A program made the position numbers and the translations under genes. Below are positions 3,465 through 32,624 of a DNA stretch of 38,276 nucleotides, in pieces. Positions within the stretch are counted from its first letter, which is position 1, and every line of letters begins with the position of its first letter. Location of the stretch: assembly GCA_013115125.1 (NCBI GenBank), contig JABANN010000332.1, positions 1-38,276 of the forward strand, in the 5' to 3' direction. Below the pieces are notes generated by a model. That model was given only the letters and a program-made list of their open reading frames with translations, was not told the DNA's origin and ran no database searches. This stretch comes from Perkinsus olseni. Taxonomy: Eukaryota.

Positions 3465-4661
3465 ATGAGCAAGCTGACCTTGTTCGCGTACTCCCCCTCG
3501 AACAACTGCCTGAGAGTTGAGGTGGCCCTCAAGGAAAAGAAGCTGGAATACGAAAGGATAGAGGTACCTTGGTCTCTAGATGGGACTCGATGATTACTAA
3601 GCTTGCCGTGGTGCTCAGATCGACATATTCAAAGGGCAGCAGAAGACTCCGAAGTTCTTGGCTATGAATCCTCGTGGTACCGTCCCATGCCTGACTCACG
3701 GATCCATTGTTCTACAAGACAGCATGGCGGCCATACAGTATCTTGACATGGCCTTTCCCGACCAAGTACGCCTCCACTCCAACTGCAGATCGCGGCTTGG
3801 GAATGCTTTCATGCTTCTCAAGGTGCCGCTGACGCCCCAAAAGCCCGCTCAAATGGCTTCATGTATTCAATACATCCACGAGTTCGAGCAAAGTTTTAAT
3901 CCCAAGAATGTCGCTTACCAGGTCTTTTTTGGAAATCAGAAGAAAGCGCAGCTGGAAGCGGAGATAGAGGTTGGTATCACGCTGCTGTCACCTACTTATT
4001 TCGGTCGCATCGGACTTATCAGCACAAAATGCTCTACGTTCGGCTGCATTACCTCATCTGGCAGTAGGACGTTGCTGGCGCGTTCAGGCTCTTCTCGAGG
4101 AAGTGGCACTTTGGGACGGTTACCTCAAGAGAAAGGAGTACCTGGTCGGTGATTTCACACTGGCAGACATCGCCGTCTTCCCCCTCGTCTCCCAGTAGGG
4201 ATCCACCGGGCTCGAAACCGGCACATTCCTTGGGTTGCATCCGCTCGTTTGGGTTCTCTCCAGGAACGTTGCCCGTTTGCCTCAGACTACACCTGTGGCT
4301 CGGACTTAACTTGGGGAGTTATCCTAACATTGGAAGATGGTAAGGGTCGAGGTTATTCTCTCACTTCTCGTTTGCGTCCTACACTGAGTACCTTAGTGAC
4401 TAAGGCTTAGTCGACCACTGAGTACCTTGCATACCTCGTAAGTGCACTCGAGAGCCCCTAAAGCTTGTCTTGCAACAGCGAGCACCTGGTCGGATAGTTT
4501 TTCCGGACCAATCCTTATACTCCGGGACGCCCCTTCATTTAAGGTACCATAACATGAAGAGTCGTCCTTCGATCAAGGACCATCCGTACTTCGAATGCGC
4601 CGATAGAGTCGACCAAATATTTGGAACTGTAGCGAAGGAAAGAGCCGTTCTTAAGAAATGA
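3465..4661 (+). CDS. Glutathione S-transferase (cytosolic GST, ~223 aa, 6 exons)
   Basis: Exons 3465-3563, 3619-3765, 3823-3969, 4088-4194, 4286-4339 and 4544-4661 join in frame via GT-AG introns. They give MSKLTLFAYSPSNNCLRVEVALKEKKLEYE..FLAMNPRGTVPCL..LQDSMAAIQYLD..YLVGDFTLADIAVFP..YPNIGRWYHNMKSRPS, with classic GST N- and C-domain motifs. Confidence 0.93.
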
Positions 4662-11831: not shown

Positions 11832-12440
11832 CACAGTAGCCAGATGGTAGTCAACAACTCTCACGGTGAACTTGTCCCGTTGACGCATGCCATCCGGTGC
11901 CCAATTCTTCTACATTTTTATCTAAGACGTAATGAAGCGCAGTCTCGTAGATTGATGCGGGACTTCAATCTGAGCGCGAGACCTTCTATTACCTTAGTGA
12001 TCGACAGAATCGCTGAACCTCCTTCGCAAGACCGTCTGAGGCGGCCCGCCTCTATGTGCCTGCCCTCGCGTGCGTATGTCCCATGCCAGGGAGTCCGTGA
12101 GACGAACCGTGCAGCACAGTACCAGTCTTACCGCACTTCGGTTACCGCTGATTTCCCTTCTTACCCTCATTCTCCGTGAGCTTCCTCGCTCCATTTCTAG
12201 AAAACTATCTCGAGTCGATTCTCTTCGTCGAGTTGACCTCAGTGAGGTCATAGCGAACCTTGAGGTCCACGAGTCTCCAAAAATAGGCTCTAGGTGCTCA
12301 GAGTCTCTGAATTGGAGAGCCCAAATTGCCCCGCCTAACGTAAAAAGCCAGCCGGGTTCATGCGGGGCCTCTAGTGATACGTCTAATATCGCACGGAAGC
12401 ATCTGGGATGAGTATCTCTTAGTAGAGCATCCAGGTACAA

Positions 12441-13931
12441 ATGTCCAGTCCCCTCCCTCTTGCTCCAGCCCGCGCTGGGCCCTCGTCAATCCCTCGAAGC
12501 CTAGGCCGTGATGCTCGTTTACGGGCCTGTCCTTTGTCAATCATCTTGCTTCATCGATCCTTTCTTCGAAGCTGCGAGAGTCGTGAGGATGCATTCCTCG
12601 CTTCGGTACCGGTCGGTTCTGTTGACCTTTTCTTGAGCCATTCATGGGCTGCTGGCGGCTTTTGGAAACAAATGGGTCTTGCTATTTCGTGTTGCTCCAG
12701 CGCTTCCTATAAGGTCATGCTGTTCTCATCTTTAATAGCAGCTGGCCTGCTATATGATCCGTCGTGGATCGGTTGCCATTACGAGCTCTCCGTATGTGCC
12801 TTCGGTTTCGTAACATTCATAATTACCCTATCCGTTATACCGTTAGTTACGCACCGCAAAACCATGGTATTTCTTGATAAGTGTTGTATACCACAGAAGG
12901 ACCCCATTGCTAAGTCCTATGGAATTTCGAGGCTAGCTGATTATCTCCATGCATCAGACACGCTGCTCATCCTCTGGTCTCCTGATTATCTCGATCGTCT
13001 CTGGTGCGTCTACGAGTTAGCCGTCTTCTTGCAGACACATGATAAAGAAGACGTGGTCTTGGTGAATCTGGACCACCTAAATCTCTGCGTATCCATGATG
13101 TTCCTGCAGTTCTTCAGTACCGCCATCGCGAGCCTCGCAGAACCGTATTATGTAGACGTATGGTACATCCTGTATGTCCTTCTACTGACTTCGAGTTTGC
13201 TTACGGATTTCGGAGCATACCGTTGTAGTGAGGAGTGGCAGAAGTTCTGTTCTGAAGTGAGGAGTTTCACTCTTCGCAAAGCTAAGTGCTCATCATTAGC
13301 GGATTACCCGATCCTCAAGCAGCTCATAGTTGATATGTACGGGTCGGAGACAAGATTCGAAGCGGCCGTGAGGGCCCTTTGGTTGGGTGAACGCAGAGAG
13401 AGGCAGTGCCCAGCTTGGCTGTTCTCTGCGGCATCGCTGCGAATCATCTGTGCGTCTTATATCCCTCTCATTCTGGGGCGTGCTGTAGGCGCCATCGCAC
13501 GCTCGAGCGAGGAAGATACGGTTAGTTTACAGCCAATCTTTTCAACCGAGGTTGATTCTGAGACCAACGTGCCCGATAACGTGCAGGTGCTGCTGTGGGA
13601 ACTACGTAGCTCGGTTATACCGATCTTGATGGCTTGCGCCCGAGCTCCTTTGATGCTACTGGTCACCCATGAACTGGCAACGGGTTGGACATTGAGTAGA
13701 TGGTGTCGTGGAGTCATCTTCGTCTCGCTCTTTCTTGCGTATAATTGTCTTTCAACGAAGATTTGCGGCGGGGGGCCTTTGTGTGCTCCATTAGTGCAAG
13801 TTCCGATGCGTTCGCCGGCGGATGAAGCACGACTTTGGATCAACGGAATCATCGCTGTAACTTTATTATTTTCGATTGTACGAAGGTCGTATGTATTTGA
13901 ACTCCCTTCAAACCGAAACAAATTGCAATAA
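12441..13931 (+). CDS. Intronless multi-pass membrane protein with TIR-like domain (496 aa)
   Basis: Uninterrupted ORF with ordered motifs DLFLSHSW, VFLDKCCI, LLILWSPDYLDRLWCVYEL matching the TIR/TIR_2 strand pattern. Several hydrophobic segments lie inside and after the domain. Confidence 0.8.
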   Translation: MSSPLPLAPARAGPSSIPRSLGRDARLRACPLSIILLHRSFLRSCESREDAFLASVPVGSVDLFLSHSWAAGGFWKQMGLAISCCSSASYKVMLFSSLIAAGLLYDPSWIGCHYELSVCAFGFVTFIITLSVIPLVTHRKTMVFLDKCCIPQKDPIAKSYGISRLADYLHASDTLLILWSPDYLDRLWCVYELAVFLQTHDKEDVVLVNLDHLNLCVSMMFLQFFSTAIASLAEPYYVDVWYILYVLLLTSSLLTDFGAYRCSEEWQKFCSEVRSFTLRKAKCSSLADYPILKQLIVDMYGSETRFEAAVRALWLGERRERQCPAWLFSAASLRIICASYIPLILGRAVGAIARSSEEDTVSLQPIFSTEVDSETNVPDNVQVLLWELRSSVIPILMACARAPLMLLVTHELATGWTLSRWCRGVIFVSLFLAYNCLSTKICGGGPLCAPLVQVPMRSPADEARLWINGIIAVTLLFSIVRRSYVFELPSNRNKLQ

Positions 13932-14434
13932 TTGACGGAAAGCGTGTGATTCTGAAAAGATGAGCGTCTTCCGATTCCCTTATCTTTGATTCCAAGATTG
14001 AATTCGGAGTCGCGTCAGATTACGGGAAGGTTCTCAATTTACCGATACCACGGGGGAATCCGCCGCAAGGCCCATCCAGGGCGGGCCGCCCTTACCGTTG
14101 TTTACCCGGCTCCCTTCCTCCCCGGCGTTGGGGCGTGGGCCAGAGGACTGCGCATCGTGCGCCGGGTCCTCGGCCAATGTGACGGGGCCGCCTCCCAACA
14201 AAAGGGAGGCAGCCGCACCACATCGCCAGGGTGGGCGGGAGGCTTTTTTTTAGAAGATAAAATTAAACTAACTCGACGCGAATGTACCTCACTCACTCCG
14301 TACTCTCCTCGACCGAACTACCCACTAGCACCATCACAAAGCTACTGTCTCATTTGTGCGCCGGGCGACACCGCCGAGTAAACTGGCCCAACGAGTTGAC
14401 CTCGAATCTTACCGTTACATCGGTAAGGAGTCGA

Positions 14435-29988: not shown

Positions 29989-32624
29989 TCACCCCTGCTC
30001 GAGAGCTGCGTGCTCACAGCAAGACACGACCGTGTACAGCAGCGGTTGGACCTCCTTCTTCCGTCGCCTCGGTGCGCCCTGAGAGCCCCTCAGAAGCCTA
30101 TCGACTCGTCGAGGGGCGCAGACCGCGTGATACCGTCGTCTACAGGACCTCACACAACACCTCACCTGAGCGTGGCCGCGGACGATAGGCTGACCACAGC
30201 CACTACATTGATGCTGATGCCTCCTCGGTACTCCCTGCCGTGCAGCCGAGGCGAGCAGGACTCGAAGGAAGCCTTCAGAGTCCTTCACCATCGACACGCC
30301 GTCGAACGACAGACCGCAGAGCAGGTGGCACCAGTCCGCGTAGCCAAAATCGCCCATGGGCAGAAGCACACTTCGCCTAGCCACGTCACAGGGGCAGAGG
30401 GAACACCTCGGACGGGAACCCCCCTGGGCGTGGGAGCAGGCGAGGCAGAGCCCCTCCGTTGTGTTGGTGCTGTCCCAACCGATGAGGCTTCGGCAGGCGT
30501 CGTGAAGACTGATACCACACCTTTCGCAAATGAAAAAGGATCCTTCGCAATCAACACCACATACTCCACACATGCGATAGGAATCACTGAGTGACATCTT
30601 GAAATCTTGCCCAATCTTGCCCATTTCCTCAACGCTCCCTTCCGACTCAGCGTCATCAACCAGACTCTGCAACACATTATCGTCGATCGGCTCATCCCCC
30701 ATCACCCCACAGCCCCGCAAGAAGTATCTTAAGGTCGCCTCCTGACCCGGAGGGAGCTCGGGAAGCACCTCCCTAATGGTGTCCTCACCCACCAACGCCG
30801 ACGCGCCGTGTACCAGTATAAAATCACAATATTTCCCTTCAGACTCGATACTCAGATTGGCCGGGCTTGGGCGTTCCTTCTCCTCCTCCTCTTCCCCATC
30901 ATCCACTACCCCTGGCCATCCTACCAGGTTCTGTGCTGATGCCGCTGCTGCTGCCTTCGCCGCCGCCACTCTGAGTTGATCCGGAGGAGCATCGTCCGGC
31001 GGGTAGCCTCCATGCAACGCTCGCTCAAGGTCCTCTAGCAGCAGCAGACGGTCATAAGGCTCCTCAAGAGTCCTTCTTCGTACCGTTTCTTTTACTACCA
31101 CTCCTTCCGATATTCTCCCGACCTCCACCATTTCGTCCTCCGCCACCACCGCCCTCCCCCCGTACATCAGAACACGCTCAGGAGGCGGCTTAGCAATCAC
31201 CGTCGATATCGCCTCCCTCGCAGATGCCTCCGACCCCCCTCCAGAGCCCGGTAGAAAACACTTCACAAACAAGGCCATGGCACAGGCCGCCAGGGACGCC
31301 AGATGGACCCTCTCCCAAAGCTGACCCTGTCGAGTACTCAGCTGCCCACATTTTCTCTCCAGCAGGAACCATACCCTCTCCTCGATCGCCCTCGGCAGCG
31401 TACTGCCCTCTTCAGTATCAGAATCAGAATCTTCACTCCCCGAGCCCCCTTCACTCGGTTTCTCTAGCATGCACAAGCACATGAGCTCGAAAGCCACGAT
31501 TTCCACGCTATCAACCGTCACCCTCTTTCGAATCATCTTCCGTGCCCACTCCGGTACTTTCGCCACTACCTTTCCGTCCTCAGTAGCCTCAGCAAGCTGA
31601 TAATACAGATGCGCCACTTGGCCTGCGGGCGACTGAGGGTCAACCTCGAGCGAACTGCTATTGCTCCCTCCTTTAAATTTCTTGTAAATGCCCTTCAGCT
31701 TCTCGACATCAGAGGCCCTGGTTTCCTTGGTAGCTTCATCATCACAGTACTTGTCGAATAGCTGCAGTCGCTGTATCGCCCATGGAAGGGCGTCATCAGC
31801 TTGGTGCGAGGACACGGCCTTCTGAGGCCTGGCGTGCATCAAAGAATTAACCACGTATCTGGTGAAAAATGCATACCGCGCGAGTTTTTCACTGATACAC
31901 CTGTCAATCAAAGCTACTGCGCCTAGAATCACGGTTAGGCTATGGTGTTCTCATCATAGAGTATGTACTGATATTAATGTAACATCACCCACCCACTGCC
32001 ACACTAAAGAGGAGTACTGACTGAATGACACACCCATGCCGCGGTCAAGAAGCCGAGTAGGTCACAGCGAGCACAACTGATGAGAGCTCCTCCAGAATCC
32101 ATCCACCAAAGTGAGTAATTTCTCCCACCCGGTGGAAGTGGCGGCCTACGGATGCCCAGGGCCCTTTCAAGCCTCCTTCCCTCCCGAGTCAGAGCGCCCG
32201 GGGGTGAACCCTACTCAAACTTGGGGGAATTTTTCTACTCTCAAGTCCAAGCGCCCCCAGTACTACTTCCTCGACTCCAGTCCTGCCCGTCTTCCAAGCT
32301 GTAATGCAGCAAGTGTCCTATCGCTCGCATTAAGAGTAGACACCGGTGGTCCCAACGCCAACACCGTCATCATCGACGCCGAGCTACGCGGTGTACTGTG
32401 AGGAGTGCCCGCCGGAGACCCACCGTCCGTCCTCCCACGAGAGCCCGGTGAAGTCGCCGCAGAGCCCCCCTGACCCTCATTCAGTAGCTCAGCCACGACC
32501 GAGTCGTGAACCCAGCGTACCGTGGTGAGATACCTGATCGCAAAAAGTATCCAAGGTCGAAGCTGGGCAAATCCAAGTACCTCGCCGGTGAGTAGGGCCT
32601 CTCTCTACTGATGGCTCGTGTCAT
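29989..32624 (-). CDS. PHD finger plus extended PHD (HC5HC2H) chromatin protein, PZP-like
   Basis: 647-codon open exon with CGVC..CERCGISLHDAC..CLAC, then CSLC..WCHLLC..CSGC..VRCCVRSCRRRYHAVCA..CCEH. Small 5' exons start at ATG 32624 (MTRAISRERPYSPA|RYLTTVRW). A further 3' exon near 29750-29940 is possible. Confidence 0.85.

Follow-up and report, generated by a model that had tools for sequence, protein, structure and literature searches.

The stretch of DNA analysed here (hereafter, the window) comprises 38,276 nucleotides (nt) of Perkinsus olseni contig JABANN010000332.1 (GenBank assembly GCA_013115125.1), and our subject is an open reading frame (ORF) on its forward strand at 12441..13931. 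This ORF is a real, intron-less P. olseni gene for a membrane protein with eight transmembrane (TM) helices, and its head very probably has the fold of the TIR superfamily, as judged from sequence matches and structure models. The ORF begins at the first ATG past an upstream stop codon, contains its own stop codon within the above coordinates and encodes 496 amino acids (aa). Among the stop-to-stop frames of at least 150 aa in the window (17 in total), only the 496-aa ORF and a 653-aa frame (see below) reach 300 aa, and the remaining sequence has the appearance of intron-bearing eukaryotic DNA. Conservation of the ORF is beyond chance, because a full-length paralog (P0002; 496 aa) matches it with 60% identity at 99% query coverage (E = 1.9e-182). 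No second copy of the family was detected inside the window by a tblastn search of it. The first-pass annotation, made from the sequence alone, had pointed out the motifs FLSHSW and FLDKCCI and a catalytic-type glutamate, E192; their positions were all confirmed on the sequence (FLSHSW, residues 64-69, first nt 12630; FLDKCCI, residues 144-150, first nt 12870; E192, encoded by GAG within LILWSPDYLDRLWCVYEL / LDRLWCVYEL).

The domain layout was obtained from a Kyte-Doolittle scan, from an AlphaFold2 (AF2) model of the full-length protein (60-sequence alignment; mean predicted local distance difference test (pLDDT) score, 88.1; predicted template modelling (pTM) score, 0.88) and from the alignment with soluble relatives. 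Hydrophobic stretches were found at residues ~78-104 (weaker), 115-136, 213-233, 237-255, 326-353, 385-409, 422-442 and 462-482; the peaks agree with the AF2 helices and bear out the order of hydrophobic segments given in the first-pass annotation. No N-terminal hydrophobic signal segment was seen in the same scan of the protein. The AF2 strands (residues 61-67, 142-144, 172-179 and 205-209) and the helices between them follow the order of a TIR domain. The head does not form one contiguous domain of ~125-200 residues; it is divided into residues 61-69, 141-209 and 256-312, and the AF2 model unites the three pieces in one sheet. According to the model and the alignment, the head is thus assembled from three separate pieces, with alphaA and alphaD each replaced by a TM hairpin, which provides two attachment points in the bilayer. 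The middle piece carries betaB (VFLD), a long BB loop (KCCIPQKDP), alphaB, betaC (LLILWS), alphaC (RLWCVYEL) and betaD. In the soluble stretch that follows the second hairpin (residues 256-325), betaE is located at ~281, alphaE at 288-300 and a further helix at 303-312. The predicted features are summarized in Table 1.

The first-pass annotation had seen a TM hairpin inside the domain; the hairpin is there, and a second one accompanies it (alphaA and alphaD positions). What it listed as two more TM segments (210-236 and 241-274) is this second insertion within the domain, and the soluble stretch that it noted next closes the same domain with betaE and alphaE. Its split-domain architecture is supported by the AF2 model and by the alignment to soluble relatives, and its further TM segments correspond to four helices at ~326-483. 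For this C-terminal four-TM bundle, no Pfam family was found (scan at E<=10), the helical fold matches had Z<=7.6, and the ESM Atlas scores were <=0.86.

Table 1. Predicted features of the gene at 12441..13931 and of the deposited gene model (conservation is given as proteins with the residue / proteins covering the column).
Feature	Residues	Position (nt)	Strand	Basis or remarks	Conservation
Conserved N-terminal lead-in (LRxxxLS ... S-x-P-V)	25-58	12513..12614	+	short strand and helices packing with the head; pLDDT >90 from residue 31	R28 135/141, S55 145/151
betaA strand and loop (VDLFLSHSW), first head piece	61-69	12621..12647	+	AF2 strand 61-67	F64 153/153, S66 152/153, H67 153/154, W69 153/154
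TM hairpin 1, replaces alphaA	73-137 (helices 73-103, 112-137)	12657..12851	+	Kyte-Doolittle and AF2	
TIR core	141-209	12861..13067	+	Pfam TIR_2, PDB sequence matches, conservation	betaB/BB loop: D146 182/182, C149 176/182, Q152 181/182, D154 160/180; alphaC: R186 176/184, W188 185/185, C189 167/185, E192 184/185
E192 codon GAG, alphaC catalytic-type glutamate	192	13014..13016	+		E in 184/185 relatives, one D
TM hairpin 2, replaces alphaD	210-255 (helices 210-236, 241-274; latter extends into cytosol)	13068..13205	+	Kyte-Doolittle and AF2	
Last head piece: betaE (FTLRKAKCS), alphaE (ILKQLIVDMYGS), further helix	256-312	13206..13376	+	conservation, soluble-relative alignment	betaE/alphaE module: F276 154/168, C283 161/169, D288 165/167, F306 155/158
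C-terminal bundle, four TM helices	326-483	13416..13889	+	Kyte-Doolittle and AF2; far-side loops 349-381, 442-458	
Deposited-model span (P0188)		12864-13857	+	loses betaA, hairpin 1 and TM helices 6-8	
Annotated 'intron', read here as coding	383-451	13587-13794	+	open in frame, conserved in paralogs	

Each of the two interruptions is a helix-turn-helix with a short turn on the far side of the membrane (residues 104-111 and 237-240). Because such a helix pair returns the chain to the side from which it started, the head pieces are all predicted to lie on one membrane side. Lys and Arg residues together make up 33 of the 246 residues on the head side and 2 of the 62 residues in the four far-side loops. 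By the positive-inside rule, an established generalisation, the Lys/Arg-rich side is the cytoplasmic one, and we take the head side to be the cytoplasm. A homodimer prediction with two full-length copies scored 0.00 and has no weight either way.

In the soluble relatives, the spacer from betaA to betaB is ~28-43 residues long and forms one helix (alphaA), and the stretch from alphaC/betaD to betaE likewise forms one helix (alphaD). Aligned with them, the window protein has ~31 additional residues at hairpin 1 and ~48 at hairpin 2. The counterpart of the last head piece in the soluble relative that we modelled (see below) falls within the TIR-aligned range (53-237). For a survey of the hairpins, strict patterns were used, by which all three motifs were found in 53 relatives (the 141 proteins failing the patterns were unscored). 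Hydrophobic segments were present at both insertion positions in 51 of the 53, and the remaining two are H-NOX fusions. Among the 51 relatives with hairpins, the A-to-B spacer measured 71-93 aa in 48 and 55, 62 and 65 aa in the other three; in the two soluble forms fused to H-NOX, it was 43 aa. Since 51 of 53 scored relatives carry both insertions, the hairpin-inserted form is, going by these sequences, the main form of the family; the contiguous form is that of all other TIRs.

Evidence for the TIR fold was collected at the levels of sequence and structure. The Pfam scan of the window protein at E<=10 returned three TIR models only, of which TIR_2 (PF13676) was the best match (residues 162-211, E = 2.1e-4). 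Among 17 family members, TIR_2 and TIR matched 15 at E<1; paralog P0051 is above the Pfam TIR cut-off (25.0 vs 21.3 bits), and precomputed tables place PF13676 or PF01582 on P0008, P0015, P0028 and P0030. In a sequence search of the Protein Data Bank (PDB) with residues 139-215 (E<=10), all 19 matches were TIR proteins, including IL1RAPL2 (the best, E = 0.012), TIRAP, Roq1, TLR2, TLR15, TIR-STING, IL1RAPL1 and IL-1RAcP; WCVYEL was aligned with WCLEEL of Roq1, with E192 opposite its Glu. The PADLOC and NCBIfam libraries gave nothing significant (best, ThcB4 with 13.7 vs 220 bits and FxsC_Nterm with 18.4 vs 130 bits).

Structural comparison was performed with VIA-align against 48,161 chains and with Foldseek. 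With the full-length model, VIA-align recovered the TIRs of SARM1 (Z 7.5; root-mean-square deviation (rmsd) 3.6; 127/140 aligned) and RPP1 (Z 7.1; 139/166), and TIR entries made up 13 of the 50 rows, standing among generic helical-bundle matches; Foldseek found the RPP1 and RUN1 TIRs (probability 0.99, E ~0.2). A second model was built from the last 277 residues of P0045, a natural H-NOX fusion, with a 69-relative alignment, by which the membrane helices were avoided without sequence edits. This soluble domain was modelled at pLDDT 95.2, and 14 of its 15 top rows in VIA-align were named TIR proteins, the fifteenth being an unnamed conserved protein (RPP1, Z 8.0, rmsd 4.0, 133/166; SARM1, 7.4; IL-18Rbeta, 7.4; MyD88, 7.3); nucleoside 2-deoxyribosyltransferases and SLOG/LOG proteins appeared in lower rows. 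In Foldseek, TIRs were again at the top, with E >=0.02 (0.02-0.3 for both models together). The TIR fold is accepted in spite of weak single scores because the sequence, two independent models and two aligners converge with no competing fold; as a prediction from sequence and models, we regard it as very likely to be correct.

Conservation was counted in 194 proteins aligned to the hidden Markov model of the family, with the proteins covering each column as denominators (Table 1); the pairwise identity to the query is ~20-25% for most aligned relatives. The TM regions are less conserved than the core in the comparison with P0002 (18/43 and 28/57 identical, compared with 63/75). The first-pass annotation had staked its interpretation on three points, and all have now been examined: a TIR-like fold was recovered by sequence search, VIA-align and Foldseek; the catalytic-type Glu is intact in the window protein and kept at E192 throughout the relatives apart from a single Asp; and the pieces are placed on one membrane side by the hairpin geometry and the Lys/Arg distribution.

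Public sequence data from run X1 contain short contigs that cover just the stretch coding for LILWSPDYLDRLWCVYEL (12972-13028, forward strand), with 4-6 differences, among them a C>T at 13001 that leaves the amino acid unchanged. The word depths of such contigs were 254 and 876 vs 45 for the contig of the locus. The conserved core in these data seems to be common to many copies or to come from abundant paralog sequences.

The deposited gene model at this locus is different from ours. The deposited protein (P0188; hypothetical protein FOZ61_006115, Perkinsus olseni, 262 aa) matches part of the ORF with 100% identity. Its first residue is the internal M142 (nt 12864), from where it keeps to the ORF as far as Q382 (nt 13586); 208 nt (13587-13794) are then removed as a GT..AG intron, and the last 21 residues are read in another frame. 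We consider this model to be wrong and truncated, because the N-terminus that it drops is conserved, the 'intron' is open and conserved, full-length paralogs exist and the region is modelled by AF2 at pLDDT ~90. The dropped residues 1-141 hold betaA and the N-terminal motif, which are kept in >95% of relatives, dinoflagellate ones included. Read in frame, the 'intron' residues are identical to those of P0002 at 36/69 positions, P0004 at 33/68, P0005 at 33/69 and P0018 of P. chesapeaki at 19/66, a conservation equal to that of the other membrane segments, and full-length paralogs of 489-497 aa are present in two Perkinsus species. Two public contigs, whose RNA or DNA nature is unrecorded, run unbroken across 13587-13794 (1847 nt covering 12300-13891, and 1554 nt covering 12423-13976); a low-depth contig from another organism's run stops at 13587 and is not interpretable. 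That the 262-aa spliced form is the true product, in which case the cell would not produce the complete split-domain protein, has in its favour the GT..AG pair at the ends of 13587-13794; set against the open and paralog-conserved 208 nt, the widely kept N-terminus, the full-length paralogs and the two unbroken contigs, we regard it as extremely improbable. Many public Perkinsus paralogs, entered with lengths of 216-363 aa or marked partial, may be shortened likewise; their gene models are probably also wrong.

The family was searched for exhaustively among 1.84 billion cluster representatives (50%-identity clusters), which gave 2114 clusters at E<=1e-3, 701 at <=1e-10 and 23 at <=1e-30. A word-indexed search gave 47 relatives, ~30 of them from P. 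olseni, P. chesapeaki and P. marinus and the others from Symbiodinium and marine transcriptomes. When ten representatives were looked up, the named ones belonged to P. chesapeaki, P. olseni, Symbiodinium natans and Symbiodinium sp. CCMP2592; four were nameless, and two were labelled just 'hypothetical protein'. Look-alikes in the ESM Atlas at 0.96-0.97 were haptophyte clusters of ~550 aa that share no common Pfam family. One P. olseni assembly (prefix FOZ60) holds at least 13 distinct member locus tags, some with adjacent numbers, a count that haplotigs may inflate. Many members carry the UniRef name 'TIR domain-containing protein'; the TIR label thus pre-exists as an automatic annotation, and what appears to be new is the TIR domain split by TM hairpins. 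In our literature search, no paper was found on the perkinsid/dinoflagellate family or on a TM-split TIR (the supplements of PMC13142454 may list members), nothing relevant was found on gene-family expansions of Perkinsus olseni, and no paper was found that links H-NOX, dinoflagellates and TIR.

Some relatives are soluble or are anchored at the N-terminus, and the family profile matches them at E 1.7e-28 to 6.6e-8. Eight dinoflagellate or marine-transcriptome proteins (P0038, P0041 and P0043-P0048) have an N-terminal H-NOX domain (haem-NO-binding, PF07700) followed by a contiguous, TM-free domain; re-scanning of four of the eight gave H-NOX matches with E from 1e-28 to 1e-35. In P0193 the contiguous C-terminal domain comes after a PAN domain (above the Pfam cut-off), in P0191 after zinc ribbons (above the cut-off) and a C-type-lectin match below it (17.8 vs 22.6 bits), and in P0192 and P0194 (the latter from a haptophyte) after several N-terminal hydrophobic segments; by domain order, P0191-P0194 look receptor-like. 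These relatives and the H-NOX fusions share the motifs and the betaE/alphaE module with the window protein, and they differ from it in that their domain is contiguous, has the short A-to-B spacer given above and follows H-NOX, PAN, lectin-like or N-terminal TM parts.

The head resembles the TIR NAD+ hydrolases (SARM1, RPP1, RUN1, Roq1, AbTir, ThsB and SpbK) in its fold, in the F-x-S-H of betaA, in the Asp closing betaB, in the G-I...L...S pattern of alphaB and in the W-C-x-x-E of alphaC with the catalytic-type Glu; WCxxE carries the catalytic Glu of the TIR NADases (SARM1, plant TNLs and bacterial TIR defence proteins). It differs from them in being non-contiguous, with TM hairpins in place of alphaA and alphaD, in its longer BB loop with a near-invariant C-x-x-Q-x-D and in scoring under the Pfam cut-offs. 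The partner domains of SARM1 and plant TNL-type proteins (ARM, SAM, NB-ARC and LRR) and SLOG were absent from the window protein in the Pfam scan (E<=10). The protein is likewise not of the Toll-like/IL-1 receptor type, since it has no LRR or Ig match in Pfam, no signal segment and eight TM helices. With the membrane-tethered TIRs (Toll-like receptors, TirC and the Gephyrocapsa huxleyi TM-TIR genes) it shares a TIR head kept at the membrane; however, their TM segments lie outside a contiguous TIR, whereas the window protein has four TM helices inside the fold and four after it. Dictyostelium TirC has one N-terminal helix, a tether reported to restrain a toxic NADase (PMC13142454), and the algal TIRs of Gephyrocapsa huxleyi are reported to have N-terminal TM helices (PMC12489294).

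The family also has features of the fungal HET domain (PF06985). Its blocks FLSHxW, [FW][LI]DKxCIxQxD and RLWCVYE resemble the three consensus blocks of HET, and like the HET proteins it is multi-copy and lineage-expanded, with sub-threshold Pfam HET matches among its relatives. P0038 matches Pfam HET at E = 0.0066 (17.2 bits, below the cut-off of 22.5), and one of the 17 family members does so at E = 0.085; in the window protein itself, no HET match was found at E<=10 (Pfam scan). The family profile matches an Emiliania huxleyi protein (E = 6.6e-8) whose UniRef name is that of a heterokaryon-incompatibility-domain protein. UniRef gives a relative of this protein the name TIR, and within the same haptophyte group both names, HET and TIR, are in use; among the 19 matches of the E. 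huxleyi protein, no precomputed Pfam domain was present. Dyrka et al. (2014; PMC4986451) describe a remote homology between HET and TIR that spans three blocks and reaches alphaC, and they record HET homologs from stramenopiles, haptophytes, choanoflagellates, green algae and bryophytes; Daskalov (2023; PMC10197012) describes the biochemical activity of HET as still unknown. The differences are that HET proteins are soluble and often stand N-terminally in NLRs, that none of the HET matches reaches the Pfam cut-off, and that the betaE/alphaE module of the family (F276, C283, D288 and F306) lies beyond the reported region of HET-TIR alignment. The perkinsid/dinoflagellate family so appears to lie in the TIR/HET borderland, with TIR models matching more of its members.

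The first-pass annotation had interpreted the protein as a membrane-anchored NAD+-cleaving or signalling enzyme of a protist, possibly an immune or cell-death sensor or a host-interaction factor. The TIR fold, the split domain, the conserved Glu, the one-sided placement and the protist origin all stand, and the enzymatic, immune or host-interaction role is retained here as a proposal. From the motifs and the models, we infer NAD+ cleavage and an immune or cell-death role, as follows. The head would be a TIR NADase-type enzyme cleaving NAD(P)+ or a related nucleotide, in which E192 would act with S66/H67/W69, D146/C149/Q152, R186/W188 and C283/D288, the near-invariant set of a putative active site. 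TIR enzymes become active when they self-associate; the surfaces through which plant TIRs do so are formed by the alphaA and alphaD/E helices (AE and DE interfaces). With the association helices placed in the membrane, activation would be controlled by how the TM helices pack laterally; the trigger may be a ligand, a lipid or a changed membrane state, and the enzyme would deplete NAD+ or produce a nucleotide signal, in the service of regulated cell death or stress/immune-type signalling. H-NOX is known to drive cyclases and kinases, and the fusions of the domain with H-NOX, PAN and lectin-like parts would fit the role of an output module. Taken as a whole (a TIR-superfamily head with HET-like motifs, an enzyme of the TIR-NADase type, membrane-controlled activation and a death or stress signal as output), this is the reading that we prefer, and we put its chance of being right slightly above even.

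Several points weigh against it. The window protein is under all curated Pfam TIR cut-offs (TIR_2, 22.2/28 bits; TIR (PF01582), 13.0/21.3 bits; ThsB_TIR (PF08937), 13.9/21.2 bits), Foldseek gave no match at E<=0.001 with either the full-length or the soluble-relative model, and the structural Z values of 7-8 are rated by the alignment tool as common background. The conservation counts may be optimistic, as 150 of the relatives are the best-scoring matches of the large search and the counts are biased to close members. An equivalent of E192 is also present in adaptor TIRs, and the best sequence match, IL1RAPL2, keeps it. Finally, the C-x-x-Q-x-D motif of the BB loop has no counterpart in the canonical TIR NADases, and the chemistry may therefore differ.

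The prominence of animal receptor and adaptor TIRs among the sequence matches (IL1RAPL2, then TIRAP and TLR2) would suit a non-catalytic scaffold or receptor, in which the head mediates TIR-TIR or partner contacts in the style of TLR, IL-1R or MyD88 and the TM part anchors it or senses a ligand, and so would the receptor-like order of P0193 and P0191, where PAN or the sub-threshold C-type lectin stands ahead of TM segments and the domain. However, about a dozen polar residues in betaA, the BB loop, alphaC and betaE show 95-100% conservation in a family diverged to 20-25% identity, a pattern that one expects in an active site more than in a contact surface, and the H-NOX fusion also speaks for catalysis, H-NOX usually driving enzymatic outputs; we hold a scaffold or receptor to be unlikely. 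Somewhat less likely in our estimation is an effector of the HET type that would kill by chemistry other than NAD+ cleavage, either on another substrate or by mere clustering. The three motif blocks, the published HET-TIR homology with its haptophyte HET homologs, and the matches of P0038, of the one family member and of the E. huxleyi protein point in that direction, but all of the Pfam HET matches are below the cut-off, TIR models match 15/17 members against 1/17 for HET, and the UniRef names within one haptophyte group are split between the two.

The membrane bundle could itself be the working part, as a channel or transporter, with the head as a regulatory nucleotide-binding module or as the maker of a gating ligand. 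The eight TM helices are confidently modelled, the pTM score implies a fixed arrangement of head and bundle, and the four C-terminal helices are conserved in frame among paralogs. The TM regions are nevertheless the least conserved parts of the protein, no transporter or channel family or fold was found for them (the helical matches remain far under the bar of ~13 that the tool sets for helical proteins), and the soluble relatives are entirely without the bundle, all of which makes this explanation very improbable. A bolder extension of the preferred NADase-type reading holds that a TIR has been rebuilt as an integral membrane enzyme, gated within the membrane by its lipid state, by damage, by a viral or host factor or by an intramembrane ligand, with the bundle perhaps as an effector or a conduit for the product; together with the H-NOX relatives, it would define a TIR signalling system that extends across the alveolates, comprises thousands of genes, takes its input from gas, ligand or membrane sensors and is distinct from those of animals, plants and bacteria. 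We offer this extension as a speculation that is unlikely to hold in full.

Elsewhere in the window, an open frame at 3601-4152 (forward strand) carries a glutathione S-transferase (GST) N-terminal domain (GST_N_2, E = 1.2e-7) and is probably a single exon of a GST gene. The 653-aa open frame lies on the reverse strand at 29989-31950 and contains a PHD-like zinc-binding region (zf-HC5HC2H, E = 1.1e-5, under the cut-off). The GC skew is strongly negative over 30-36 kb of the window.

TIR domains have a central place among the enzymes of immunity and cell death in bacteria, plants and animals. To our knowledge, every TIR studied is contiguous and soluble, and at most tethered by flanking TM helices; an alpha/beta enzyme domain in which two of its own helices are turned into TM hairpins is a different solution from that of the known TIRs. 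The protein is a new architectural variant within a known domain superfamily, in a large, unstudied perkinsid/dinoflagellate family. The architecture is no rarity: the family counts 2114 clusters, with several copies in a mollusc parasite, and is present in coral symbionts. If active, the enzyme would give an entry to the hardly explored regulated cell death or stress signalling of perkinsids and dinoflagellates, a natural experiment on how the self-association of TIR domains is controlled, and a sequence bridge from TIR to the fungal HET domains.

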